Shown here in pieces: positions 4,974-44,511 of a stretch of DNA of 50,752 nucleotides. Position 1 is the first letter of the stretch. Every line of letters starts with the position of its first letter. The position numbers were made by a program, and so were the translations under genes. This stretch comes from an uncultured Rhodospirillaceae bacterium (GTDB lineage Bacteria > Pseudomonadota > Alphaproteobacteria > UBA8366 > GCA-2717185). The notes beneath the pieces were generated by a model. It was not told the origin of the DNA, made no database searches, and worked only from the letters and a program-made list of their open reading frames with translations. The DNA is taken from contig CAJWOT010000001.1 of assembly GCA_913044215.1 (NCBI GenBank), forward strand, positions 1 through 50,752. Reading direction: 5' to 3'.

Positions 4974-5103
4974 GGCGGATATCCTCGTTGCTGTGAGTAT
5001 CCTGGGATCGTAGGCGGCAGCAGAGACCCTGTCCAATTGTCCTGTTGCATGGGACGGCGGTGGGTTGGATGTTGGTGCAGCGAGATATCCAGGAGGGACC
5101 GAC

Positions 5104-6135
5104 ATGGAATTCGACGTTAAAACCAGGGCCGACAGCTGGGATAACATTGCGCAAATGGCGCGTGATATGGAAGGTTTGGGCGCCTCCGGTCTGTTATTCA
5201 CCGAGGCAGGTCAGACTCCCTGGATGATGATGACGGCAGCGGCGATGGCGGCACCCGCGCTCGACTTGTCCACCGGCATCGCGGTGGCGTTCCCGCGCAG
5301 CCCGATGGTGACCGCGCAAATCGCGTGGGAGCTCGCAGGCAACACTAAAGGCAAGTTTCGCCTTGGGCTCGGCAGCCAGGTGAAGCCGCATATCGAGCGG
5401 CGTTATGGTGTTGCATTTGACAAGCCGGCCATGCGCATGCGCGACTACATGCTGGCGGTTCGCGCCTGCTTCACAGCGTTTCGCGGTGAAGCGCGGCTGG
5501 AGCATGACGGGCCGTTTTACAAACTGAACCTGCTGACGCCGCATTGGGCGCCGGCGCGACACGATTTCGAAGACATCAAGCTGGATATGTCTGCCGTTAA
5601 CCCGTTGATGCTCAAGGTCGCGGGGGAGGTGGCCGATGGCGTCCATGTCCACCCGATGCACTCCATCCCCTATATCGAGAAGCGCTTGATCCCGCAGGTC
5701 AGTGAAGGGGCCGCAAAGGCCGGGCGGAGTCTGGAGGATATCGATCTGATCATTCCGGTCCTGGCGGTACCTGGGGACACGCCCGAGGAGAGGGCTGCGC
5801 TGGAGCGCGAGGCGAAGGCGGCGATTGGGTTCTATGGCTCGACCCCGGTTTACGCCTTCCAGTTCGATGATCTGGGATATGAGGGGAAGCGTCAGGAGCT
5901 TGCCGAAAAACTGCGTGCCGGTGATCGGGACGGCATGATCGACCTCGTCAGCGACGAGATGCTCAACCAGTTCGGCCTCTCCGCGCGTTGGGATGACATG
6001 GCGGACCAGCTGATCGCTCGTTACAAGGGCGTCGCCAGTCGCGTCGTGATGTATTTTGCGTTGCAATCCATTGCCGCCAACCCGGCCAATCACGACAAAT
6101 GGGCGGAAATCGCGCGGGCCGTTCGCGCCGCGTAG
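5104..6135 (+). CDS. LLM-class (luciferase-like) oxidoreductase, F420/flavin-dependent type
   Basis: Full-length luciferase-like monooxygenase pattern ('FRLGLGSQVKPHIERRYG...'). Start at 5104 (MEFDV). Confidence 0.85.
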   Translation: MEFDVKTRADSWDNIAQMARDMEGLGASGLLFTEAGQTPWMMMTAAAMAAPALDLSTGIAVAFPRSPMVTAQIAWELAGNTKGKFRLGLGSQVKPHIERRYGVAFDKPAMRMRDYMLAVRACFTAFRGEARLEHDGPFYKLNLLTPHWAPARHDFEDIKLDMSAVNPLMLKVAGEVADGVHVHPMHSIPYIEKRLIPQVSEGAAKAGRSLEDIDLIIPVLAVPGDTPEERAALEREAKAAIGFYGSTPVYAFQFDDLGYEGKRQELAEKLRAGDRDGMIDLVSDEMLNQFGLSARWDDMADQLIARYKGVASRVVMYFALQSIAANPANHDKWAEIARAVRAA

Positions 6136-7940: not shown

Positions 7941-8735
7941 ATGAGCGAGCAACCTGTGCTCACCGATATCGACGCGCGCGGTGTCGCGACCGTCACCCTG
8001 AATCGGCCCCACCGAAACAATGCCTACAATGATGCCATGATCCAAGGCTTGCTCGACGCCGTTGGGACTTTGGCGGCGGACGAATCCGTTCGCGTTATCG
8101 TTTTCAGGGGCAATGGCAACTACTTCCAGGCTGGTGCCGATCTGAAATGGATGAACGACCTGTCGAAGAAGGCACTCGACACCAATTTGGCGATGTCTAC
8201 CATCACGACCGATGCGGTCCGCCATCTGAACACCTGTGCAAAGCCAACATTGGCATTGGTGCATGGCGGTTGCTTCGGTGGCGGTATTGGCATGATGGCG
8301 GCATGTGATATCGCGATCGCGTCGGAAGAGGCACAGTTCTCCATCACCGAAGTCCGTTGGGGATTGGTCGCAGGGCCGATCATTCCGCAGCTATGCGACG
8401 CGATGGGTATGCGGGCGCTGCGGCGCTATGCGCTTACGGCAGAACGGTTCGATCCAACGGTGGCGAAGGCGTGCGGATTGATCCACGAAATCTGCCCGAC
8501 CGGCGAGCTCGACACGGCCGCGGCACCGATCATCGACGCTTTGTTGAAATGCAGCCCAAGCGCAATCGCCGAGACCAAGGATATGATTCTGCGCACCGCG
8601 TCGCATGAGGTCGATGATCATACAGCCCCGGGTATCGCCTTGGCGCATGCATTGCGGCGCCGCACGGAAGATGGCGTGGAAGGGCTGGCGAGCTTCAATG
8701 AACGGCGTGAAGCGTCCTGGTATCCAGGTAAATAA
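7941..8735 (+). CDS. Enoyl-CoA hydratase/isomerase (crotonase) family protein
   Basis: Has 'VATVTLNRPHRNNAYN...FRGNGNYFQAGADL...GGCFGGGIGMMAACDIAIAS' oxyanion-hole motifs. Start at 7941 (MSEQP). Confidence 0.85.
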   Translation: MSEQPVLTDIDARGVATVTLNRPHRNNAYNDAMIQGLLDAVGTLAADESVRVIVFRGNGNYFQAGADLKWMNDLSKKALDTNLAMSTITTDAVRHLNTCAKPTLALVHGGCFGGGIGMMAACDIAIASEEAQFSITEVRWGLVAGPIIPQLCDAMGMRALRRYALTAERFDPTVAKACGLIHEICPTGELDTAAAPIIDALLKCSPSAIAETKDMILRTASHEVDDHTAPGIALAHALRRRTEDGVEGLASFNERREASWYPGK

Positions 8736-8754
8736 TTACGCGGAGGAGAAATAA

Positions 8755-9159
8755 ATGACGTTGGAGGTCGGGAAGGAATCGATCGATATCGGAATCGTCG
8801 TGCGCGATATCAAGGCCGCGCTTAGGTTCTATAGGGATACGATCGGGCTCGAATATGAAGCGGAGATGCCGGCGGGCGGTGGGCGCATGCATCGTCTCAT
8901 GTGTGGATCGACGGTCGTAAAATTGGTTATTCACGATCAGGTGCCGGACCGAGCCGACAATGCCGGCGGACCGCTCGGGGCGTCCGGCATAAGGTACTGG
9001 ACGATCACTGTGACGGACCTGCAGGCGATAACCGACAAATGCCGCGAGGCCGGTTACACGGTCGCGGTCGAACCGCGGGATGTCCGGCCCGGTGTGCGTA
9101 TTTCGATGGTCGAGGACCCGGACGGAAACTGGGTCGAGTTCCTTGAAAATTCGGCGTAA
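8755..9159 (+). CDS. VOC (glyoxalase/bleomycin resistance/dioxygenase) family protein
   Basis: 134 aa, with 'IDIGIVVRDIKAALRFYRDTIGL...MVEDPDGNWVEF'. A strong GGAGGAG RBS lies upstream. Confidence 0.85.
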   Translation: MTLEVGKESIDIGIVVRDIKAALRFYRDTIGLEYEAEMPAGGGRMHRLMCGSTVVKLVIHDQVPDRADNAGGPLGASGIRYWTITVTDLQAITDKCREAGYTVAVEPRDVRPGVRISMVEDPDGNWVEFLENSA

Positions 9160-9174
9160 GGGAGACCAAACGCG

Positions 9175-10164
9175 ATGAAACTGGGCGTATTCCTTCAAGC
9201 GCAGTGGGAACCTGGAACCGACATCGAGGAGGGGATCGCCGGTTTGGTGCGTCAGGCGGAATTGGCTGATGAGCTGGGGTACGCCTCGGTGTGGTTGCCG
9301 CAGCATTATGTCTCGGCGCCCTACGCGTCGATTCAACCTGGACCGCTGATGGGGTTGCTGGCGGCGCACACGCGTCGGGTTCGCCTGGGCACCGGGGTCT
9401 TTCTCTTGCCCTTCACGCGACCGGTAGTGTTGGCCGAGGAGATGGCGAGCCTCGATTGGATCACGGGAGGCCGACTTATTTTCGGCGCTGGCATGGGCTA
9501 CCGCGAAGACGAGTTTTCTGCCATCGGTGTCCCCATGAAGGAACGGCTTGGTCGGTTCACCGAAGGGCTCGAGCTGATCAAACGGCTTTGGACGGAGGAT
9601 TCCGTCACACACAAAGGCAAGTACTTCTCGACCGACAATGTCACGATCAGTCTGAAACCGAAGCAGTCCTCCGGGCCTGCGATTTGGATCGGTGGCAGCG
9701 TGCCTGCGGCAATACGACGGGCCGCGCGTATCGGCGACGTATGGGTTTCGAGCATGAATCCGAGTTTCGAAGAACTGCGCGAGCTGTTCGATGCATTCGA
9801 CGAGGCCCGGCAGGGCCAACCCGCGGCACCAGAGCGCCCAACGATGCGCGAATGTTATATCGGCGAAACGGCTGAGCGTGCCGTATCGGAGTCGATAGAC
9901 GCCTTGTACGGCAAGTACAGCGCCTATCAAGCCTGGGGTACCGCATCGAGCCGCACGACATTCAGCAACCGCTCGGAATTTGAAGCGTTGATGGCGTCAA
10001 AATTTCTTGTCGGCGATGCTGCCGGGATTGGCGAACAGCTACGGTGGCTGCGCGACGAAATTGGGATCGACCATTTGATCGTTCGGGTGCGTTGGCCTGG
10101 TGTTTCAGAAAGCCAGGCGCTGGATACGATGCGCCATTTGGCTGAGGTGGCGGCTTCGGTATAA
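9175..10164 (+). CDS. LLM-class flavin-dependent oxidoreductase
   Basis: 329 aa with the luciferase-like pattern ('GYASVWLPQHY...GRLIFGAGMGYREDEF'). Confidence 0.85.
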   Translation: MKLGVFLQAQWEPGTDIEEGIAGLVRQAELADELGYASVWLPQHYVSAPYASIQPGPLMGLLAAHTRRVRLGTGVFLLPFTRPVVLAEEMASLDWITGGRLIFGAGMGYREDEFSAIGVPMKERLGRFTEGLELIKRLWTEDSVTHKGKYFSTDNVTISLKPKQSSGPAIWIGGSVPAAIRRAARIGDVWVSSMNPSFEELRELFDAFDEARQGQPAAPERPTMRECYIGETAERAVSESIDALYGKYSAYQAWGTASSRTTFSNRSEFEALMASKFLVGDAAGIGEQLRWLRDEIGIDHLIVRVRWPGVSESQALDTMRHLAEVAASV

Positions 10165-22258: not shown

Positions 22259-23197
22259 CTAGCGCGCACGGCTTTTCGGCCAACATTCACGTAAAGCGGT
22301 CAGAAACGCCGAGGCCGCGGGGGCGATGGCCCTATCGCGACGTGTGATGATGCCCAGTCGCTGTACGGCGCCGGAGGCACGAAGGGGGCGCGTTTCGGTA
22401 TCGGCAGGGTAGGGGCCGGCAAAGTAGGTTTCCGGAACGATTGCGACCCCTAACCCTTGCGCGACCAGACGAAACGCCGTTGTGAACTGTCCGACGGTAA
22501 AATGCGAGTCGAGGGTGACGCCGGCCGCCGCGCCGGCGGCATCCAATGCCCGGCGGGCAGCAGCCTCCGTCGGCATGGATATCAGGCGTTCGCCCGCCAA
22601 GTCGTTCAACGTCAGTGTTCTTTGGGATAGATAGGGGTGGCCAGCCGGCAGAACCACGCGGAATCCGTTTTCGCCAAGCGATTCCGCTTCGAGCGGGCCG
22701 CCAATGTCCGTCGTGTCGCCCAGCCCGAAATCTGCGGAGCCGCTGCGCACTTCCTCCAGCACGTTCGTTTGGACGCTCTCGCGCAGGTCGATGGCGATTC
22801 TGGGATAACGCTCCGCGAAACGGGCAAGCGCGGTCGGCAGTACACCATGGGCGATGGTCATGAGGCTCGCGATGACAACGCGTCCCCGCTCGACATCTGC
22901 CAGTTCACGCAAATTACGGAGACCGAGGCCGAGATCGCTCAGCAATCGCTCGGCGAGGGGCATGAATTCGCTTCCCGCCACGGTCAAGGATACCCGCCGC
23001 GTGGTCCGATTAAATATTTCTGTACCAAGAATATCTTCGGCGCGGCGGACAGTCCGGGTCAACGTCGGTTGTGTAACGCCAAGGTCTGCAGCCGCGGCAG
23101 CGAAATTGCGATAGCGGGCGACCGCCAACAGGGCGCGCAGGTGTCTCGTGCTCAAATCGACATCGGGACTGACATTGTCCAATGATACCGGATCCAT
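22259..23197 (-). CDS. LysR-family transcriptional regulator
   Basis: N-terminal wHTH 'LRALLAVARYRNFAAAAADLGVTQPTLTRTVRRAEDILG' plus a LysR substrate-binding domain. It is divergent from the selenoprotein operon. Confidence 0.9.
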   Translation of the reverse strand: MDPVSLDNVSPDVDLSTRHLRALLAVARYRNFAAAAADLGVTQPTLTRTVRRAEDILGTEIFNRTTRRVSLTVAGSEFMPLAERLLSDLGLGLRNLRELADVERGRVVIASLMTIAHGVLPTALARFAERYPRIAIDLRESVQTNVLEEVRSGSADFGLGDTTDIGGPLEAESLGENGFRVVLPAGHPYLSQRTLTLNDLAGERLISMPTEAAARRALDAAGAAAGVTLDSHFTVGQFTTAFRLVAQGLGVAIVPETYFAGPYPADTETRPLRASGAVQRLGIITRRDRAIAPAASAFLTALRECWPKSRAR

Positions 23198-23372: not shown

Positions 23373-24428
23373 ATGACGCTCATTTCGAAACGTTACGAGG
23401 TGGAGGACGTCCTCGCCGCGCAGGAATTCTACCACAGTCGCCAGTGGACGGACGGGCTTCCCGTGGTGCCGCCGACGCCGGAAGCAGTGCAGGCGTGCCT
23501 GGACTGGGTGATGATGCCGGCCGACCATCTGATCGGGATTGAGCCGGTCCGTGAGCGCGCCATTACTGCGGAGAAACTTGCCGTAAACGCCATCATGGCC
23601 GGTTGCTTGCCAATGCATTTTCCGGTTGTTGTGGCGGCGGTTACGGCCATGTTGGAAGAGCCGTTTTTGGTGCATGGGGCGACAGCCAGTACGGGCGGCT
23701 GTGCCGTTATGGTCGTCATAAATGGACCAATCCGACACGAACTTGGCTTGGACGGCACATTCAACGCGCTGGGATCCAGCGATCGCGGTACAACCGTGAT
23801 CGGTCGCGCGATCCGGCTTATCCTAGGCAATCTGCTCGATGTCCGGCCGGGTCAGATTGACCGATCGACTCTCGGTCACCCCGGCAAGCTCAGCTACTGC
23901 ATCGCCGAAGATGAGGAGAACGCCCCCTGGCCATCGCTCGCCGAGGACCGGGGCATTCCAAAGGAGGCGTCCGCTGTCACCGTTATGGCTGCCCTTGCCC
24001 CCCGGCAATTCATGAATGAGTGGACGACCGAGCCGAAGGAAATCCTCGATACCTATTGTGCAGAGATAAAGGCGAACTTGCGCCATTACTCGATCTACCC
24101 CGGAAACTACGCGATCGTCGTGCCACCGCAGTTGCGGACGCATTTCCAGAATGCGGGCTGGTCGCGCCGGGATATCCAGGAATACGTCTTCGAAAATGCG
24201 CGCATTTATCGCCGAGAATGGGCTGACGTCGGTAAAGCAAACGTCGTCGGCAAGCGCGGCGATCAAGAGTATCCGGCGTTACCGGATCCCGAACATTTGC
24301 TGATCATCGCGGCCGGTGGACCGGCGGGCGGTTTCGGCGCGGTTATAGCCCCTTGGCTGGGGCACAAGAGCAGGGCGGTGACGATTGCGATCGGCGCTTG
24401 TCTCGATTGCGAGCCGCCGGCGAATTGA
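23373..24428 (+). CDS. Conserved protein of unknown function; first gene of the selenoprotein operon, C-terminal CxxC
   Basis: 351 aa with a GGAGG RBS 8 nt before the ATG at 23373. GC-rich codon use matches the neighbours. It ends '...AIGACLDCEPPAN'. I cannot assign a family from memory. Confidence 0.75.
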   Translation: MTLISKRYEVEDVLAAQEFYHSRQWTDGLPVVPPTPEAVQACLDWVMMPADHLIGIEPVRERAITAEKLAVNAIMAGCLPMHFPVVVAAVTAMLEEPFLVHGATASTGGCAVMVVINGPIRHELGLDGTFNALGSSDRGTTVIGRAIRLILGNLLDVRPGQIDRSTLGHPGKLSYCIAEDEENAPWPSLAEDRGIPKEASAVTVMAALAPRQFMNEWTTEPKEILDTYCAEIKANLRHYSIYPGNYAIVVPPQLRTHFQNAGWSRRDIQEYVFENARIYRREWADVGKANVVGKRGDQEYPALPDPEHLLIIAAGGPAGGFGAVIAPWLGHKSRAVTIAIGACLDCEPPAN

Positions 24429-24458
24429 GTTTGTAGATAGAAAGGAGAGGTCCCTAGG

Positions 24459-24983
24459 ATGGAAATACTCGATCCTACACATGAGGCGGATGCTGGCGGT
24501 TTTGCCTTGGCGGCACGCCTCTCAGCACTGCAGGGTGCCACGGTCGGCATCATCTCGAATGGGAAGAAGAATACGATTCCGTTCTTCGACGCGTTCGAGA
24601 GCGAGTTGAAAGAAACATACGGGGTTGCCGAGGTTGTCCGCCGGACAAAATCGAACTACAGCGCCCCTGCCGATGCCCATCTGGTGGAAGAAGCGCAAGG
24701 CTGGGACGCCGTCGTCGCCGGTATAGGCGATTGAGGCAGTTGCTCGTCGTGCAGTTTGCATGACGCAGTGATCGGCGAGAAGATCGGCAAACCGGCGGTC
24801 AGTATCATGACCACCAAATTCGTGAGTGCCGCCGAACTCATGGCCCGCGTTTTGGGCGCGGACGGTTATCCGTTCGTGGTCATCGACCATCCCATCAGCA
24901 GTGCCTCTGGAGAGACGCTGGATGATTGGGCTCGGACGGCGGCTGGCCAGAGCGTTGATCTGTTGATTGGCGCAAACCGCTAG
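24459..24983 (+). CDS. UGSC-type selenoprotein (Sec at codon 92, UGA 24732..24734)
   Basis: ORFs 24459..24734 and 24756..24983 are in the same frame and separated only by TGA. Translation across it gives '...WDAVVAGIGD-U-GSCSSCSLHDAVIGEKIGKPAVSIM...'. A strong AAAGGAGAGG RBS precedes 24459. The downstream ORF has only a TTG and no RBS. A SECIS-like hairpin follows. Confidence 0.8.
24745..24765 (+). promoter_or_regulatory. Candidate bacterial SECIS minihelix
   Basis: CGUCGUGCA-GUU-UGCAUGACG forms a 9-bp stem (one G-U pair) with an apical loop containing G and U. It starts 11 nt after the UGA. The apical part UGCA-G.U-UGCA resembles the E. coli fdhF minihelix as I recall it. Confidence 0.6.
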
Positions 24984-24986
24984 CCG

Positions 24987-26156
24987 ATGCCGGAATCCAC
25001 CACTGTCGGTCCGCTTGCCGGCTATAAGATCGTCGAGATCGCTGGCATCGGACCGTCGCCCCTATGCTGTTCCCTGCTGGCCGATATGGGGGCGGATATC
25101 GTTCGTATCGACCGAAAGGGGCTGACCGGTCTCGGCTTCGAATACGCCGGTGTGAAAGCGGATATCCGTCGCCGTGGACGCCCGTCGATTGCGGTTGATT
25201 TGAAGCATCCGAAGGGTGTCGAAACGGTTCTGCGTTTGATCGAGAACGCCGACGCGTTGGTTGATCCGATGCGCCCCGGCGTGATGGAGCGGCTCGGACT
25301 CGGGCCTGACGAATGCTTGGCGCGCAATCCGAGGCTGATCTACGGACGCATGACCGGATGGGGACAGGATGGACCGCTTGCCCCAGTCGCAGGCCATGAC
25401 ATCAACTACATTTCACTATCCGGGGTATTGCACGCCATAGGCACGCGCGAACGGCCGGTGCCGCCGCTCAACGTGATCGGCGATATGGGCGGTGGCGCCA
25501 TGTTCCTGGTCATGGGGCTGCTCGCCGGCATGCTGGAGGCGCGAAATTCCGGCAAGGGGCAGGTCGTCGATGTCGCGATGACGGAAGGATCGGCTTATCT
25601 GGCGATGGCCTGCTTTGGGCTCGCCTCTTCCGGTCATTGGACCGACACCAGGGAAAGTAATCCGCTGGATGGCGGCGCACCGTTCTGGCGTTGCTATGAA
25701 ACCAAAGACGGGAAGCACATATCGATAGGGGCCGTCGAGGAGAAGTTCTACGCCATACTATTGGAGACACTTGAACTTGATCCTACAGACCTGCCCGGGC
25801 AACTCGATCCGGAGGGGTGGCCGGAGATCATCGAGACCCTGGACGCGAAATTCAAAGAAAAGACCCGGGACGAATGGTGCGACATCATGGAAGGCACGGA
25901 TATCTGCTTTGCACCGGTCTTGAGCTTCAGCGAGGCGCCACACCATCCGCATAACCAGGCGCGAGGCAGCTTTGTCGAGGTCGAGGGAATCGTTCAGCCG
26001 GGACCTGCACCGCGTTTCAGCCGGACGCCGTCCAGGGTAAAAGGCGGACCACCGGATTTCGGTGCGCAGACGGAAACAGCCTTGGCGGCTTGGGGATTTT
26101 CCGAATCCGAGATCGATATGTTGAAATCGGAAAAGGCGATCGGGCGCGAACAATAG
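24987..26156 (+). CDS. CaiB/BaiF family III CoA-transferase (alpha-methylacyl-CoA racemase-like)
   Basis: 'LAGYKIVEIAGIGPSPLCCSLLADMGADIVRIDR' and later 'NVIGDMGGG'. The ATG is 3 nt after the selenoprotein stop. Confidence 0.9.
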   Translation: MPESTTVGPLAGYKIVEIAGIGPSPLCCSLLADMGADIVRIDRKGLTGLGFEYAGVKADIRRRGRPSIAVDLKHPKGVETVLRLIENADALVDPMRPGVMERLGLGPDECLARNPRLIYGRMTGWGQDGPLAPVAGHDINYISLSGVLHAIGTRERPVPPLNVIGDMGGGAMFLVMGLLAGMLEARNSGKGQVVDVAMTEGSAYLAMACFGLASSGHWTDTRESNPLDGGAPFWRCYETKDGKHISIGAVEEKFYAILLETLELDPTDLPGQLDPEGWPEIIETLDAKFKEKTRDEWCDIMEGTDICFAPVLSFSEAPHHPHNQARGSFVEVEGIVQPGPAPRFSRTPSRVKGGPPDFGAQTETALAAWGFSESEIDMLKSEKAIGREQ

Positions 26157-26360
26157 CGGTGCCGCGCCACGCACCTTAATTTCGTTCATATCTCCCCCAT
26201 TTGGGGATATTCCGGCCGGCTTTTCGCGGTAAATTATCCTTGGTGCTGCGACGTGCGGCGGGACAGGTCGCTTACGCGATCTTAACCACGCCGTTCGAGA
26301 CTGGTCGGGGGTTAAGACCGGTGTCGCAGTTGAGGCGGCGCGAATTGTCGGGGCGGCGGT

Positions 26361-27785
26361 ATGGCGCATTCATTTTCATTCTTATCCGACCGAGAAGCGC
26401 GCCTTTTGGCGACGTCCGGGGATACAAGCTTTACCGGTGTGGATGAGGAGCTTGTAGACGCGAAGCCGCTGTTCAGCCTCTTTGCCGTCGATGATCGGGC
26501 GACGGTCATGGCGGCGCTGACGTAGGCTAACGCACAAGCGGAAATCGAACTGCCGGAGCTGCGGATCCTCAGCGGGGGCGATCAAGAAGCCGCATTCGAC
26601 ATAACGATCCAACCGGCAGGACCCGACAAATTCTGGATTCTGTTTGTCTTGTCGCCCAACCAGCCGGGTCCGGCGAGGCCGGCGCAAAAGGAAGACTTCC
26701 TCGACGCGGTTGCCGAGCGTCTGGGTGTGGCCGACGCGCCAGCCATGCAGATGAGCATGGTCGATTTCGAAGCGTTGCGCGATACCGAGCTGAGGGAAAA
26801 ACTTGGTGATGATGCGATGCAGGATTTCCGGTCGAGCATCGTAGGTGCTTTGACGGAAGTCGCGGTCGATGGGCAGGTCTGCAGGCTGGATGCCACGAGC
26901 CACGGTGTATTGAGCCCGATCGATCAGGATCAGGACCAAATGATAGCGACGGTTGCAGAGGCGACCGAGGAATTCGGGGTTAGCGAATCCGATCTCGGGA
27001 CTGCAGTTGAAAGCGTGGAACTCGATGTCGATGCCGATGCAGAGCCTGAAGATCTCCGCGGACTCTTATCTCATACAGCACATAAATTTTATCAAACTGT
27101 TCGCAAAGGGACGCCCTTTGGCACGGCCAAGATCAGCGAAGTTTCGGAGGAGATCGCCCAGGCGATACAGCTCATCGAGACCGCGCTGGAGCGTGGCGAT
27201 ATTTCTGTTACGTCGCGGGAAGTCCGGCGCATCACAGATGGGGGTATTTCCCTGTACCTCGCCCATGGCGCTCTGGTCGTCGGTAATGAGATCGTTCCCG
27301 CTGACCAGCTTCTGGCCATGGAGGATCACCCGGAGTTGGCCGGTCGTCATGATCGCTACATGGTCGCGATTGCGTTGGAGACCTTCGGTCAAGCCGATCC
27401 GAGTACCCCCGTAATTGTCGATTTTGCACTCCCGACCCTGGAATCCGGTTAAGCGAGCCGGATTGCCGAAGAAATGGCGGGACTGGGCTATCGGATCGGT
27501 TTCCGGCCGCATGGGCTCGACATGGCGTCCAGCCGCTCGAAAGGCGCGCGGCAGGTTTATCAGCTGTTAAAGGAAGGGGTGCCGGTCTGGCTGATGAATT
27601 TCGCCACTGCGATTTCCAAGACCCGCCGGCTGCGCGGCGCCTATGTCAAAGTATCGGCGACCTTTTTGCGCGATCTGAGCTTCCAGCCTGAGCGCAACAA
27701 GCTGATTTCCCGTTTTCTGAAGATTTGGCACGACGTGGAAGTGAGCCTTATCGTTTCTGCACTCGATCTTCGCCACGAAGCCTGA
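26361..27785 (+). pseudogene. Degenerate PAS-GGDEF-EAL signalling gene with two in-frame stops (TAG 26523..26525, TAA 27450..27452)
   Basis: A single frame runs from the ATG at 26361. It covers a PAS-like block ('LFSLFAVDDRATVMAALT*ANAQAEIELPELRIL...KFWILF') and a GGDEF-like block lacking GGDEF ('MSMVDFEALRD...DGQVCRLDATSHGVL'). EAL-like blocks follow ('ALERGDISV...', '*ASRIAEEMAGLGYRIGF...YVKVSATFLRDL'). The catalytic signatures are degenerate. Confidence 0.6.
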
Positions 27786-33309: not shown

Positions 33310-33474
33310 GGCTGAATTTCCCCTACGTTGGCTGGATCGTTGTTGCCGGTCATTCTGCGCGTATGTCCCGCACGTTTCAAACCAAGATCGAGAATTTCGT
33401 TGGCCCGGGGTTGCGGGAAGCGGTGCCGGCGGCAATCATTCGCGCAATCCGTCCCGTCATCGAAGGAGCCTCAC

Positions 33475-34395
33475 ATGGCCGACAAGAAGATCGAATTCGG
33501 CACGACCCTGCGGTCGGTTTACAACATCGCGAAGCTTGCCAAGCAGATCGAAGACCTGGGCTACGATTTCCTCGGCTGCGGTGAGCATGTTAGCTTTCAT
33601 GGCGAGACGGCGAACGGGCTGGTTTCCCTGTCGGTGGCGGCAGGGGCCACCGAGCGCATCAGGTTGATGAGCGCGATTACCCTGGTGCCGCTCTATCCGG
33701 CCGCCTTGCTTGCGAAGATGGGCGCGGCGCTGGATGTGGCATCGAATGGGCGCTTTACGCTGGGGGTCGGTGTTGGTGGCGAGTTTCCGAACGAGTTCGA
33801 GGCCTGCGGCGTGCCGGTAAACCAACGCGGCTCGCGAACCGACGACGCGCTGGAGGTCATCACCCGGACATGGACCGAGACAGATGTGACCTATGAGGGA
33901 CGCTATACGACACTCAAGAATTTCAGTCTGAAGCCACTGCCGATCCAGAAGCCGCGGCCGCCGATCTGGGTGTCCGGGCGCACCGATGCGGCGATGAAAC
34001 GAGCGGCGAAATATGGCGATGGCTGGCTGCCCTACATGTACACGCCGGAGCACCTCGCCAACAGCATCGAGAAAATCAAGGCGTTCGGTGAGGAGGTCGG
34101 CACCGATTTGTCGGACTTTACCTTCGCGCTATACATCTTCTCCGCCGTGCATGAGGACAATGATACGGCGGTGAAATACGCAGCCGACCGGCTCAGCAAG
34201 CAATACGCGCAGGATTTCAGCCAGCTCGTGCACAAATACGCGCTCGCCGGCGATCCGGACAAATGCAAAGCGCGGCTCCAGGAATACATCGATGCCGGGG
34301 CCAGCGCGGTCTTCGTCTCATCCGCCTGCCCGGATGATTACATCGACACCAATCTGGAGATGCTCGCCAAGACGGTCATCCCCGCCTTCCGCTGA
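33475..34395 (+). CDS. LLM-class F420/flavin-dependent oxidoreductase
   Basis: 'GYDFLGCGEHVSFHG...RFTLGVGVGGEFPNEFEACGV'. The ATG at 33475 follows GAAGGAG. Confidence 0.85.
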   Translation: MADKKIEFGTTLRSVYNIAKLAKQIEDLGYDFLGCGEHVSFHGETANGLVSLSVAAGATERIRLMSAITLVPLYPAALLAKMGAALDVASNGRFTLGVGVGGEFPNEFEACGVPVNQRGSRTDDALEVITRTWTETDVTYEGRYTTLKNFSLKPLPIQKPRPPIWVSGRTDAAMKRAAKYGDGWLPYMYTPEHLANSIEKIKAFGEEVGTDLSDFTFALYIFSAVHEDNDTAVKYAADRLSKQYAQDFSQLVHKYALAGDPDKCKARLQEYIDAGASAVFVSSACPDDYIDTNLEMLAKTVIPAFR

Positions 34396-34410: not shown

Positions 34411-35439
34411 ATGAAACTCGGCATGACCACGGGGAGCGGCAATCGCCAGGTTGCCCTCGATATGAAGATGATCCTGGAAGCGGAGCGGCTCGGCTACGAC
34501 ATCGTCCGCACATCGGAATCCTATGGCAGCGATGCGGTCAGTACTGCCGCCTTCATCCTGGCGCAGACCGAGAGGATTCATGTCGGCACCGGGATCATGC
34601 AGTTCGGCGCCCGCACGCCTGCGATGACGGCAATGACCGCGATCAGCCTGGATCACCTGTCGGGCGGCCGCTTTCGGCTCGGGCTCGGCCTGTCGGGACC
34701 GCAGGTCATCGAGGGGTGGCATGGGCAGCGCTTCGGCAAACCGCTCGGCATGACGCGGGAATATGTTGCGATTGTGCGCGACATCTTCAAGCGCGAATGC
34801 CCGATGGAGCATCACGGGACCTATTTCGATATCCCGTACGCCGGCGACGATGCGACCGGTCTCGGCAAGCCGCTGAAATCGATTACCCATGCCCGGGCGG
34901 ACATGCCAATCTATCTCGCGGCGATGGGGCCGAGGATGCTCAGCTTGAGCGCAGAAGTTTCCGACGGCGTCGTGCCGGGCATGTTTTCACCGGAGAAATG
35001 GCCATCGCTCGAGAAGCCACTTCTGGATGGGTTTGCGAAGGCTGGCGGCGGCAAAGGGTTCGACAGCTTCGATCTGGCGCCCGCTGTCCCGGTTTCGTTC
35101 GGCAACGATGCGCAGGAATGTCGCGACAAGCTGAAGCCCTATTATGCCCACTATATCGGCGGCATGGGGGCGCGTGAGGTGAACTTCCACAACGCCAATG
35201 TCCGGCGGCTTGGCTTCGATGGCATGGCCGACCGCATTCAGACATTGTTCCTGGACGGCAAGCGTGACGAAGCGGTTGCTGCGGTCGATGATGATTTCAT
35301 CGACGAGGTGGCACTCTGCGGTTCGAAGGACCGCATCAGAGAGCGGCTGACCCGCTACACCGCGCTCCCGATCCGGACCTTCCAGGTCCGTTTCCCGACG
35401 ATGGATACCATCCGGCTGATGGCGGAACTGCTGGGGTAG
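34411..35439 (+). CDS. LLM-class F420/flavin-dependent oxidoreductase
   Basis: 'AERLGYDIVRTSESYGSDA...GRFRLGLGLSGPQVIEGWHGQRF'. Confidence 0.85.
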   Translation: MKLGMTTGSGNRQVALDMKMILEAERLGYDIVRTSESYGSDAVSTAAFILAQTERIHVGTGIMQFGARTPAMTAMTAISLDHLSGGRFRLGLGLSGPQVIEGWHGQRFGKPLGMTREYVAIVRDIFKRECPMEHHGTYFDIPYAGDDATGLGKPLKSITHARADMPIYLAAMGPRMLSLSAEVSDGVVPGMFSPEKWPSLEKPLLDGFAKAGGGKGFDSFDLAPAVPVSFGNDAQECRDKLKPYYAHYIGGMGAREVNFHNANVRRLGFDGMADRIQTLFLDGKRDEAVAAVDDDFIDEVALCGSKDRIRERLTRYTALPIRTFQVRFPTMDTIRLMAELLG

Positions 35440-43443: not shown

Positions 43444-44511
43444 ATGAAATTCGGCGGCGTCGTTGCGACCAAAATCGACGACTGGCAGATCTTCCCGTTC
43501 CTGGAAGAGCTTGGTTACGACAGCGCCTGGGCGCCGGATTCGCAGATGATCTGGTCGGATTGCTATGCGACCCTGGCGCTGGCAGCACATCACACGAGCC
43601 GTATCCGATTGGGCACGGGCGTGTCCATCGCGGGCACGCGGGCCGCGCCCGTGACCGCGCATTCCATAGCAACGATCAACAAGCTGGCGCCGGGTCGCAC
43701 GTTTCTCGGGATCGGCACGGGCCACACGGCGATGCGCATCATGGGGCAGAACCCGGTGCCGCCGAGTAAGTTCCGCGACTATCTGCGGGTCCTACATGGC
43801 CTGATGCGCGGCGAAGAGGTCGAGTATGAAGGTCAGCTGATCCGGTTCCTGGACCGCGAGCTCGAGTGCATCAATACGGACGACCACATCGACATCTATG
43901 TCGCCGCGAATGGGCCGAAGGCGATGGCGGCCGCTGGCGCCTATGGCGACGCGCGGGTCGGGGCCGGCAACGAACCGGTCAGCCTGTTTCAGCGCAACAT
44001 GGAGCGTATGCGCAAAGGCGCGGAAGACGTTGGACGGGACCTGCAGGATGACTTTCCTTCCGCCGTTCTGACATATGCCTGCATCCTGCAACCGGGGGAA
44101 AGACTCACAGACGACCGGGTGATAGACGAAGTTGGTTCTGCGGCGCTATCGAGCCTGCATTTCTGGTACGAGATCTATCTGCAGCGCGGTACAGATGCCT
44201 TCATCATGCCGGCGGTGCATGATACCTGGGACGCCTACAAAGCCTATGTCGAAAGCGAGTTCCCGCTGGAGCGGCGGCACCAGTATCTCCACCGCGGCCA
44301 TTGCGCCTTTACCCCGGAGGGCGAGCGGCAGTTCATTACGCCCGAACTGATCCGTGCTTCCGGCGGGCTGGTCGGCGAACCGGACGAAATCGTTGAACAG
44401 ATCCGGACCTTCGAGGCGGGCGGTCTCACCGAAACACTCTTGCTACCGCCTGTTGCCGTGGCGCGCGACAACTTCAAAAGTTTTGCCGAGCAGGTGATCG
44501 CGCGCTATTAG
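43444..44511 (+). CDS. LLM-class F420/flavin-dependent oxidoreductase
   Basis: 'LEELGYDSAWAPDSQMIWSD...RIRLGTGVSIAGTR...FLGIGTGHTAMR'. Confidence 0.85.
   Translation: MKFGGVVATKIDDWQIFPFLEELGYDSAWAPDSQMIWSDCYATLALAAHHTSRIRLGTGVSIAGTRAAPVTAHSIATINKLAPGRTFLGIGTGHTAMRIMGQNPVPPSKFRDYLRVLHGLMRGEEVEYEGQLIRFLDRELECINTDDHIDIYVAANGPKAMAAAGAYGDARVGAGNEPVSLFQRNMERMRKGAEDVGRDLQDDFPSAVLTYACILQPGERLTDDRVIDEVGSAALSSLHFWYEIYLQRGTDAFIMPAVHDTWDAYKAYVESEFPLERRHQYLHRGHCAFTPEGERQFITPELIRASGGLVGEPDEIVEQIRTFEAGGLTETLLLPPVAVARDNFKSFAEQVIARY

Follow-up and report, generated by a model that had tools for sequence, protein, structure and literature searches.

When a reading frame halts at a TGA and resumes in the same frame directly beyond it, has one gene ended and another begun, or is the TGA a codon to be read? 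The question is raised here by position 24732 of the window, by which we mean the whole stretch of 50,752 nucleotides that was analysed, where a first-pass annotation had proposed an in-frame UGA served by a SECIS hairpin. We argue that the stretch 24459..24983 is one gene, which encodes a UGSC-family selenoprotein of 174 residues (probability about 0.92), and that the TGA is almost certainly a selenocysteine (Sec) codon within it, with a SECIS hairpin downstream. As a family, this is nothing new, for UGSC selenoproteins have already been described and catalogued, and the current understanding of Sec decoding is left unchanged by these results. The features of the locus are collected in Table 1.

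Table 1. Features of the locus in window coordinates.
Feature	Position	Strand	Remarks
Putative LysR-type regulator gene	22259..23197	-	divergent; LysR-like N-terminal helix-turn-helix pattern in the translation, read by eye
Conserved partner gene, 351 aa	23373..24428	+	TTG 23358 start would give 356 aa; TGA stop 24426-24428
Shine-Dalgarno-like AGGAG	24443..24447	+	11 nt 5' of the UGSC ATG 24459; read from the sequence
UGSC-family selenoprotein gene	24459..24983	+	ATG 24459, Sec-UGA 24732, stop TAG 24981-24983, 174 residues
In-frame UGA, almost certainly Sec, residue 92	24732..24734	+	opens the U-G-S-C (UxxC) redox motif
Extended SECIS helix (predicted)	24739..24772	+	weak lower stem GUUGCU/AGUGAU with three G-U pairs; bulged C24766; MFE structure
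SECIS minihelix	24745..24765	+	9-bp upper stem CGUCGUGCA/UGCAUGACG, apical loop GUU; G23/U24 counted from the U of UGA
CoA-transferase family III gene	24987..26156	+	PF02515, 264.6 bits; starts 4 nt after the UGSC stop
Terminator-like GC-rich hairpin	26158..26175	+	pattern scan; directly after the CoA-transferase gene

The ORF list gives two frames, 24459..24734 (91 aa, from an ATG) and 24756..24983 (75 aa, from a TTG), and these are, as the first-pass annotation had said, in register and split only by the TGA. The division is the work of automatic ORF and gene callers; in public assemblies the gene appears as ORFs of 91 and 71 aa, each of which matches PF24696. Read through, it carries the motif GD-U-GSCSSCS and runs on beyond the UGA for 82 sense codons and a TAG (the annotation had counted 83 codons), and the GC content of the three codon positions is coding-like on both sides of the TGA (0.65/0.45/0.63 and 0.57/0.51/0.71). 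A single gene crosses the TGA. Such miscalling of UGSC genes is routine, and the right remedy is to join the halves and mark the Sec. A scan of the window for other genes split by a TGA yielded none that was convincing, the candidates being same-frame neighbour genes or antisense frames.

The protein belongs to the UGSC family. Its residues 2-169 align with positions 1-170 of the 172-position profile PF24696 (“UGSC family”) at 164.5 bits (E 3e-48; gathering score 25). The score for NCBIfam NF041046 (“UGSC family (seleno)protein”), scanned with U entered as C, is 120.8 bits (E 4.5e-35; positions 2-146 of 147, 145 positions), 4 bits below an equivalog cut-off of 125 that is a naming threshold and not a biological criterion. 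Apart from those few bits, nothing essential sets it off from the family, with which it shares a length of about 175 aa, the GD-U-GSC motif with Sec first in UxxC, and a marine or aquatic metagenomic origin. The family has been known since 2005-2008; Zhang & Gladyshev (2008, PLoS Genet, PMC2398784) count the “UGSC-containing protein” among the major UxxC selenoprotein families. Its Cys forms are a small minority (21, to 255 Sec forms, in the GOS data), much as we find 43 Sec forms against 4. It is among the most abundant selenoprotein families of aquatic metagenomes and has no known function in the literature.

Do the homologues end where the TGA stands? They do not: tblastn matches cover residues 1-174, and the PF24696 domain spans both halves. 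The annotation had asked whether Cys or Sec occupies this column, and the answer is both, for across 47 related genomic loci, the aligned codon is TGA in 43 and TGC (Cys) in 4, all four of them actinobacterial. The TGA-bearing loci span the Alphaproteobacteria, Gammaproteobacteria, Burkholderiaceae, Acidimicrobiia/Actinomycetota, Rokubacteria/Methylomirabilota, and Acidobacteriota, and the TGA/Cys column is conserved. Two of the Sec-form loci, L016 and L026, sit on the complete chromosomes OZ245780.1 and OZ244139.1. Further Cys forms carry the identical peptide GDCGSCSSCS (CGSC forms are P0002, P0005, and P0446); family proteins in the databases mostly finish at GD, that is, truncated at the TGA. 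One JGI protein has a W at the Sec site, and its underlying DNA is TGA. The stretch from the TGA to the TTG, residues 93-99, ranks with the best-conserved parts of the protein. Separately, we observed that one related locus (L047) looks decayed and that another (L051) has CGA where the others have TGA.

The hairpin is where it had been placed, with a 5' arm CGTCGTGCA at 24745-24753, a GTT loop at 24754-24756, and a 3' arm TGCATGACG at 24757-24765; 10 nt (24735-24744) lie between the UGA and the stem, and 19 nt (24735-24753) separate the UGA from the loop. Folding of 24732..24790 recovered the minihelix, but the MFE helix is longer than the annotation had it (Table 1); the added lower stem is probably dispensable, since its sequence is not conserved among the homologues. 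The bacterial SECIS consensus of bSECISearch, as set out in the legend to Fig 2A of PMC13188914, has an apical loop of 3-9 nt, an upper stem of 4-16 bp, a G as first or second base of the loop, after which G or U is usual, a spacing of 16-37 nt, and an MFE of -7.5 kcal/mol or below. The UGSC hairpin, whose 9-bp stem carries a 3-nt loop that begins G-U and lies 19 nt beyond the UGA, and whose 21 nt fold at -11.5 kcal/mol, agrees with every item listed in that legend, the consensus being a permissive one with which agreement is necessary and not sufficient.

The geometry is also, as the annotation had proposed, that predicted for recognition by SelB, with G23 and U24 at the distance from the UGA found in Escherichia coli fdhF. 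In the fdhF numbering, which we follow, G23, U24, and a bulged U17 have roles in SelB–SECIS recognition. We used an fdhF SECIS sequence verified by its 100% identity in 5,419 genomes, and with it our hairpin shares a start about 11 nt after the UGA, a place within the coding sequence, the apical G23/U24, and, in the 3' arm, a UGCA that occupies positions 26-29 when numbered from the U of UGA. It differs in its perfect 9-bp stem with no bulged U, in its 3-nt GUU loop (vs. the 4-nt GGUC), and in having no similarity outside UGCAG.U.UGCA. In other words, “fdhF-like” is a fair description of the spacing and the loop bases and a mistaken one of the exact element: judged by sequence, the UGSC hairpin would work as fdhF does in geometry, yet it is not the same element.

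How surprising is such a hairpin? Its fold energy alone is unremarkable against shuffles, for the 59 nt of 24732..24790 fold at -21.4 kcal/mol (z = -1.72), and 14 of 200 shuffled sequences fold equally well. Hairpins of 9 bp with 3- to 7-nt loops occur at 76 of 101,504 positions on the two strands of the window, a rate at which about 0.6% of TGAs should have one starting 7-14 nt downstream; a TGA with such a hairpin is found at only three sites in the window, and neither of the remaining two is in register with the ORFs around it. The significance of the hairpin therefore comes from the conservation of the same TGA and hairpin in 43 independent loci and not from its fold energy. Rfam returned no bacterial SECIS family, either over the whole window at gathering thresholds or over 24650-24850 at E<=10; one viral match in the latter, at E 4.1, we took as chance.

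Of the explanations that compete with ours, the one that survives best accepts the Sec and disputes the hairpin: the structure at 24745..24765 would be a by-product of the peptide CSSCSLHD, and the real SECIS would be another or differently bounded. Most stem bases do fall at the first or second position of codons for invariant residues, and because the stem also encodes a strongly conserved peptide, part of its nucleotide conservation is owed to the protein. The modest fold z-score sits well with this, as does a statistically weak covariation: over the 43 aligned SECIS regions, double changes are seen at a single pair, and the score is equalled or bettered in 56 of 500 shuffles, a weakness that follows from a nearly invariant sequence. 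With so little variation, we used a profile of synonymous-site entropy in place of the covariation test, and this profile weighs against the by-product explanation. Normalised codon entropy, which is mostly 0.5-1.0 across the gene, is 0.37, 0.42, 0.07, 0, 0, and 0.29 at residues 95-100; the freezing of synonymous sites coincides exactly with the 5' arm and loop. Every Sec form (42 of 42) writes Ser99 as AGT, giving A22, G23, and U24; Cys forms write it as AGC or TCG. Third positions, and with them which of the six Ser codons is used, are fixed where they pair or form the loop; elsewhere, and in the Cys forms, they are free. One Cys form (L049/L050) has the same CSSCSL peptide and has lost the upper stem. 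The changes permitted in the 3' arm all preserve pairing, being only C/U changes opposite G, and at pair 21/39, a G-C to A-U double change is seen in three cells.

The annotation had asked that the hairpin be conserved in Sec-containing orthologues, and it is: all 43 retain a 6-bp core and a GU(N) loop, whose G and U are invariant and whose third base may be U, C, A, or G. Hairpins at or below -7.5 kcal/mol form in 39 of the 43, 95.9% of cells are paired over the 41 distinct sequences, and the 48 nt 3' of the UGA show no other conserved structure. A hairpin conserved together with its synonymous sites is a structure kept beyond what the protein requires, and we regard the by-product explanation as very unlikely.

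How, then, would the UGA be read? We suppose that UGA 24732 is decoded as Sec during translation and that the mRNA downstream folds into the minihelix 24745..24765, whose apical loop would offer G23 and U24 to SelB carrying Sec-tRNA(Sec); the ternary complex would thereby be kept at the ribosome when the UGA enters the A site. The SECIS, lying inside the coding sequence, would itself then be translated, as C-S-S-C-S-L-H-D. SelB binding and SelB-dependent decoding are predictions from the sequence, and a Sec-UGA in this gene would mean that the source, a marine Rhodospirillaceae-like alphaproteobacterium, uses selenium. ARAGORN found no tRNA, tRNA-Sec included, in the 50.7-kb window, and Pfam found no SelA, SelB, or SelD domain in its 30 largest ORFs; nor did the 3-kb flanks of the related loci contain Sec machinery or the 47 loci a tRNA-Sec.

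Might the UGA instead be read through as Trp or Cys by a near-cognate tRNA, or TGA be reassigned, in a host without Sec machinery? The want of that machinery in the window would fit, and so would the W by which the JGI pipeline rendered a homologue's TGA. Reassignment is contradicted next door, where the 351-aa gene immediately upstream terminates at a TGA, which is therefore still an ordinary stop in this organism. As for leaky read-through, it has no need of a consensus-fitting SECIS hairpin with frozen synonymous sites, and homologues place a Cys, the residue that usually stands in for Sec, at this site of a UxxC/CxxC redox motif. We think this explanation a shade less probable even than the last. 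A pseudogene with a nonsense mutation, or a TGA that is an assembly or sequencing error, might take encouragement from the decayed look of L047 and the CGA of L051, but the same TGA recurs in 43 independently assembled loci from several phyla, the downstream frame and protein are conserved, and codon-position GC stays coding-like on either side; conservation already contradicts this account, and we give it scarcely any credence. Least credible of all, and likewise already contradicted, is a true stop between two small independent genes of 91 aa and 75 aa, which matches the mechanical ORF listing and the public gene calls; the downstream ORF has (as the annotation had noticed) no ATG and no AGGAG-like site before its TTG at 24756, a codon that is Leu100 of the read-through protein and begins on the third and last base of the hairpin loop, while one Pfam domain covers both halves, the Cys homologues are continuous, and the well-conserved residues 93-99 lie 5' of that TTG.

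Given a Sec at residue 92, what might it do? An AlphaFold2 (AF2) model of the Cys homologue P0002, which is 54% identical to the window protein and stands in for it here, reaches a pLDDT of 93.6 and folds as (beta-alpha)5, its five beta-alpha units following one another in order; Cys94, which aligns with Sec92, lies between strand 86-92 and helix 95-110. By this model, the UGSC protein would be a small flavodoxin-like alpha/beta domain with Sec92 lying after a strand at the N-terminal end of a helix and Cys95 in the first turn of that helix, an arrangement that would form a UxxC redox center. Foldseek against the PDB gave generic flavodoxin-like matches (SIS, PurE, lumazine synthase, FMN reductase, and similar; TM 0.31-0.48), and a sequence search of the PDB with the UGSC protein gave no match. 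The thioredoxin-like fold suggested for UGSC in PMC2398784 is not borne out by the model, which predicts a flavodoxin-like sandwich and has no thioredoxin among its top 50 Foldseek PDB matches.

A redox role would accord with what is seen in PrdB of proline reductase and in thioredoxin- and peroxiredoxin-like UxxC selenoproteins: by analogy with these, the Sec would attack and the Cys three residues on would resolve. As with PrdB and other UxxC redox subunits, the gene adjoins that of a larger partner protein; unlike them, UGSC has a partner without a known family, and no relation in sequence or fold to those subunits was detected. The likeness is one of analogy and not of membership.

The partner is the 351-aa protein whose gene immediately precedes UGSC; at least 45 of the 47 loci, Cys-form loci among them, have it in that place, with identities of 35-92%. 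It has more than 7,000 homologues (4,607 clusters at 50% identity), all of them unnamed or “hypothetical” and without Pfam among the 240 matches listed, and it found no family in Pfam (to E<=10) or NCBIfam and no sequence match in the PDB. Foldseek found no specific PDB structural relative for the model of either protein; class I fumarate hydratase and cyanuric acid hydrolase, with TM of only 0.22-0.28, were not accepted as homologues of the partner. Of 64 partner sequences, 63 keep Cys78 and 63 keep Cys176, and a C-terminal CxxC, at 343-346, is often present. Longer homologues of the partner are fused N-terminally to UGSC in five cases and to Redoxin/AhpC-TSA in three, and the “UGSC/Unknown_1” fusion depicted in Figure S1A of the 2008 report (PMC2398784) may be the same pairing.

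Synteny and fusions together suggest that UGSC is a redox subunit of the 351-aa protein and that the two may be physical partners. Beyond this we offer, tentatively and at somewhat less than even odds, a broader proposal: UGSC would not be a thioredoxin-like protein acting on its own but would serve a widespread, uncharacterised enzyme family of about 350 aa as its redox subunit, one with a flavodoxin fold that carries the selenium; UGSC and Redoxin/AhpC-type domains would be lineage-specific functional analogues for the same redox step; and here that step would be tied to CoA-ester catabolism. The strict pairing with the 351-aa protein, the UGSC-or-Redoxin fusions, and a recurrent family III CoA-transferase neighbor are the starting points for experiment.

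That neighbor is probably part of the UGSC operon, and UGSC and its partner would then be expressed together with it. It lies directly downstream of UGSC in 13 close relatives (L001-L012 and L044), and more distant family III CoA-transferases occur within 3 kb in 8 further loci. The terminator-like hairpin that follows it possibly ends the operon, a possibility weakened by a count of such hairpins that is not above shuffled expectation. Clustering of the flanking ORFs in the related loci brought out the partner, the CoA-transferase, and the LysR-type gene and nothing else, apart from spurious long antisense ORFs of the kind that GC-rich DNA produces. The putative LysR-type gene, a candidate regulator of the operon, has the same position in L002, L003, L005, L006, and L009-L011 and, more distantly, in L033 and L034.

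How is one to read two short ORFs that lie in a single frame, one at 24459..24734 (91 aa, opening with ATG) and the other at 24756..24983 (75 aa, opening with TTG)? The first-pass annotation had taken them for one gene that the ORF track splits, and what we have found supports one gene with a Sec-UGA and an in-frame SECIS. The TGA lies at 24732-24734, followed by 10 nt before the 5' arm of the hairpin, and this codon, the arms, the loop and both ORFs are all in the sequence where they had been placed. Translation of 24459..24983 meets only one internal stop, codon 92, and coding sequence does continue beyond it, for 82 sense codons and a TAG rather than for the 83 codons that had been claimed. 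The downstream ORF was also said to lack a ribosome-binding site, and reading the sequence we see no AGGAG-like site before the TTG at 24756; an AGGAG stands at 24443-24447, upstream of the true ATG, and the TTG "start" is simply Leu100, its first base being the third base of the hairpin loop. The source organism has not reassigned TGA, because this codon (24426-24428) is the stop of the gene just before this one. On comparative evidence, we put the probability that the UGA is decoded as Sec at roughly 0.9.

Features of the probable selenoprotein operon and its surroundings
Feature	Position	Strand	Remarks
Partner gene	23373..24428	+	351 aa, directly upstream of UGSC
SECIS minihelix, 5' arm	24745-24753	+	CGTCGTGCA; from sequence
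SECIS minihelix, loop	24754-24756	+	GTT; from sequence
SECIS minihelix, 3' arm	24757-24765	+	TGCATGACG; from sequence
CoA-transferase family III gene	3 nt after UGSC		PF02515
Terminator-like hairpin	26158-26175		after CoA-transferase; weak evidence
LysR-type gene	upstream		divergent
Luciferase-like (F420/FMN-type) monooxygenases, five paralogues	5065..6135, 9175..10164, 33328..34395, 34411..35439, 43444..44511		

When U is entered as C, Pfam PF24696 ("UGSC family") covers residues 2-169 of the read-through protein (164.5 bits, E 3e-48), and NCBIfam NF041046 ("UGSC family (seleno)protein") aligns to it over 145 of 147 profile positions (120.8 bits, E 4.5e-35); the stop sits in GD-U-GSCSSCS, which is a redox motif of the UxxC type. 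The naming cut-off of NF041046 is 125 bits, 4 bits above the window protein; at 120.8 bits, the alphaproteobacterial branch would not be named automatically by NCBI's rule, though it is a clear family member. Zhang and Gladyshev (2008, PMC2398784) counted the "UGSC-containing protein" as one of the most abundant selenoprotein families in the Global Ocean Sampling (GOS) data, with 255 Sec forms, 21 Cys forms, the motif UxxC and no known domain; reviews of 2022 (PMC9312934) and 2026 (PMC13188914), the latter of which enters the family under NF041046, give its function as still unknown. The family, in other words, was described some two decades ago and stands in both Pfam and NCBIfam, and our finding, already known, will hardly surprise a specialist. 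The practical gain is a corrected annotation: public assemblies with an identical CoA-transferase neighbour, Tara Oceans included, do split the gene, calling it as 91-aa and 71-aa ORFs that each match PF24696.

Could the gene just end at the TGA? Most family members in the protein database do break off after ...GD, where the TGA stands, and the few that are full length have Cys at that position. At the DNA level, homologues do not end there: tblastn alignments start at residue 1, cross the stop and continue to about residue 170-174. Our set of 47 loci was obtained by scanning a single genome for each species; the closest is a Rhodospirillaceae MAG at 98% identity, and the remainder belong to Alphaproteobacteria, Gammaproteobacteria, Burkholderiaceae, Acidimicrobiia and other Actinomycetota, Rokubacteria/Methylomirabilota and Acidobacteriota. 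Of these loci, 43 have TGA as the aligned codon and four (L039, L043, L045 and L046), all actinobacterial, have TGC in the context GDCAGCCSCS. One locus counted in the 43 (L047:3001-3328, a Hyphomicrobiaceae MAG) keeps the TGA, has Phe for Cys98, a broken stem and a lost downstream frame, and looks like a decaying UGSC gene. A JGI protein record, P0003 (L052:285-842), has Trp at the Sec position where the DNA reads TGA, which the pipeline rendered as W; such records conceal selenoproteins as seemingly full-length proteins. In protein P0001 (L051:1501-2025), the position is Arg, with CGA where others have TGA and the SECIS hairpin fully intact (-10.5 kcal/mol); the cause is either an error in base calling or a Sec-to-Arg change of very recent date that probably inactivates the protein.

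The hairpin was claimed to have the geometry of a SECIS, and it agrees with the published bacterial consensus (PMC13188914) on four points of four. That consensus has an apical loop of 3-9 nt on a stem of 4-16 bp (Fig 2A legend), a G at loop position 1 or 2, most often with G or U after it, a distance of 16-37 nt from UGA to loop and a minimum free energy of -7.5 kcal/mol or lower; in the window, the loop is GUU, the stem 9 bp, the spacing 19 nt and the energy of the 21-nt minihelix -11.5 kcal/mol. Calling it "fdhF-like" was right in part. Compared with a 42-nt E. coli fdhF reference, itself matched at 100% identity in fdhF of 5,419 genomes, it shares G23 and U24 in the loop and UGCA at 26-29 of the 3' arm (counted from the U of UGA), but it has no bulged U and a loop of three bases rather than four; it resembles fdhF in geometry and is a different element. 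An Rfam search returned no matching RNA family.

Might such a hairpin arise by chance? RNAfold of 24732..24790 recovers the proposed stem, with a weak lower stem lengthening the helix to 24739..24772 (-21.4 kcal/mol), and 14 of 200 shuffles fold equally well (z = -1.72). Hairpins of 9 bp with a 3-7-nt loop occur at 76 of 101,504 positions on both strands of the window, and at that rate about 0.6% of TGAs would be followed by one that begins at a distance of 7-14 nt; in the window just three TGAs are, and the two besides 24732 lie out of frame with the surrounding ORFs. By itself, then, the hairpin is suggestive and not proof.

Conservation says more. Across 43 Sec-form sequences (41 distinct), the nine pairs are standard in 95.9% of cells, and the same apical hairpin forms in every one of the 43. 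Classical covariation is weak: five pairs are invariant, one has changed on both sides from G-C to A-U in three sequences, and 56 of 500 shuffles reach the score. So much is to be expected of a stem that doubles as the coding sequence for the invariant peptide C-S-S-C-S-L-H-D. Normalised codon entropy, mostly 0.5-1.0 at conserved residues elsewhere in the gene, is 0.37, 0.42, 0.07, 0, 0 and 0.29 at residues 95-100: Ser97 is TCG in 38 of 39 sequences, Cys98 is TGC in 42 of 42, and Ser99, with six codons possible, is AGT in 42 of 42, which provides A22, G23 and U24. The third loop base may be U, C, A or G. In the 3' arm, His101 (CAT/CAC) and Asp102 (GAC/GAT) vary freely, and pairing is kept because each change is C or U opposite G. 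The four Cys-form loci of the 47 have AGC or TCG for Ser99 and TGT for Cys98; among Cys forms with an identical peptide, one, L048 (TGT), retains 7 bp, and another, L049/L050 (TGC), carries CTC-TAC for TTG-CAT and no longer has the upper stem. Such a synonymous pattern is what one would expect of an RNA element overlaid on coding sequence, and it ties the hairpin to the UGA. As for the decoding machinery, ARAGORN finds no tRNA in the window, Pfam scans of its 30 largest ORFs give no SelA, SelB or SelD, and the flanks of related loci hold no tRNA-Sec.

For the fold, we used a confident AF2 model of a 54%-identical Cys homologue, P0002 (pLDDT 93.6, pTM 0.87), which has five beta-alpha units in order and puts Cys94, aligned to Sec, between strand 86-92 and helix 95-110. 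In thiol oxidoreductases, the reactive Cys or Sec usually sits where a helix begins, at its N terminus. The "likely Trx-like fold" proposed in 2008 (PMC2398784) is unsupported, because the PDB proteins that Foldseek returns are all generic flavodoxin-like ones (SIS domains, PurE, lumazine synthase, FMN reductases; TM 0.31-0.48), with no thioredoxin among the best 50 matches.

What might UGSC work with? The 351-aa partner, for which we found no Pfam, NCBIfam or PDB relatives, is encoded immediately upstream in at least 45 of the 47 loci (35-92% identity), and this holds for Cys-form loci too. Its family has more than 7,000 matches (4,607 clusters at 50% identity), and 240 homologues among the matches listed are all unnamed or "hypothetical", without a Pfam domain. 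Five longer homologues carry an N-terminal UGSC domain (P0404, P0422, P0446, P0459, P0462) and three a Redoxin/AhpC-TSA domain with CxxC or CxxS (P0374, P0407, P0433); this is a swap of domains between lineages, and it suggests that the two share a function. Three things, the adjacency, the fusions and the exchange for a thiol-redox domain, argue that UGSC would serve the partner, an uncharacterised enzyme, as its redox subunit, and this module with its Redoxin-swapped fusions is the lead worth following. An alignment of 64 partner sequences has Cys78 conserved in 63 and Cys176 likewise in 63, with a C-terminal C-x-x-C in 36 (Cys343 in 43, Cys346 in 40); for the partner's confident AF2 model (pLDDT 88.6, pTM 0.90), no structural match is convincing (best TM 0.28). 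In P0327 and P0328 (~720-740 aa, no Pfam domain), at least two separate stretches match the partner domain.

The gene after UGSC is a closely related CoA-transferase in 13 close relatives (L001-L012, L044), and more distant family III members lie within 3 kb in eight further loci, two of them Cys-form. Judged by Pfam scans, the rest of the window is catabolic, with luciferase-like monooxygenases, TauD and PhyH dioxygenases, enoyl-CoA hydratases, hydantoinase A/B and a molybdopterin-binding dehydrogenase, and the probable selenoprotein operon lies in a dense catabolic island. The 50 kb hold two TauD, two PhyH and three enoyl-CoA hydratase genes and a hydantoinase A/B pair. A 411-aa ORF without a Pfam match, 8695..9930 (-), overlaps a luciferase-like gene on the opposite strand and may be spurious; a 267-aa ORF at 26649..27452 (+), also without a Pfam match, is conserved downstream in the related locus L003.
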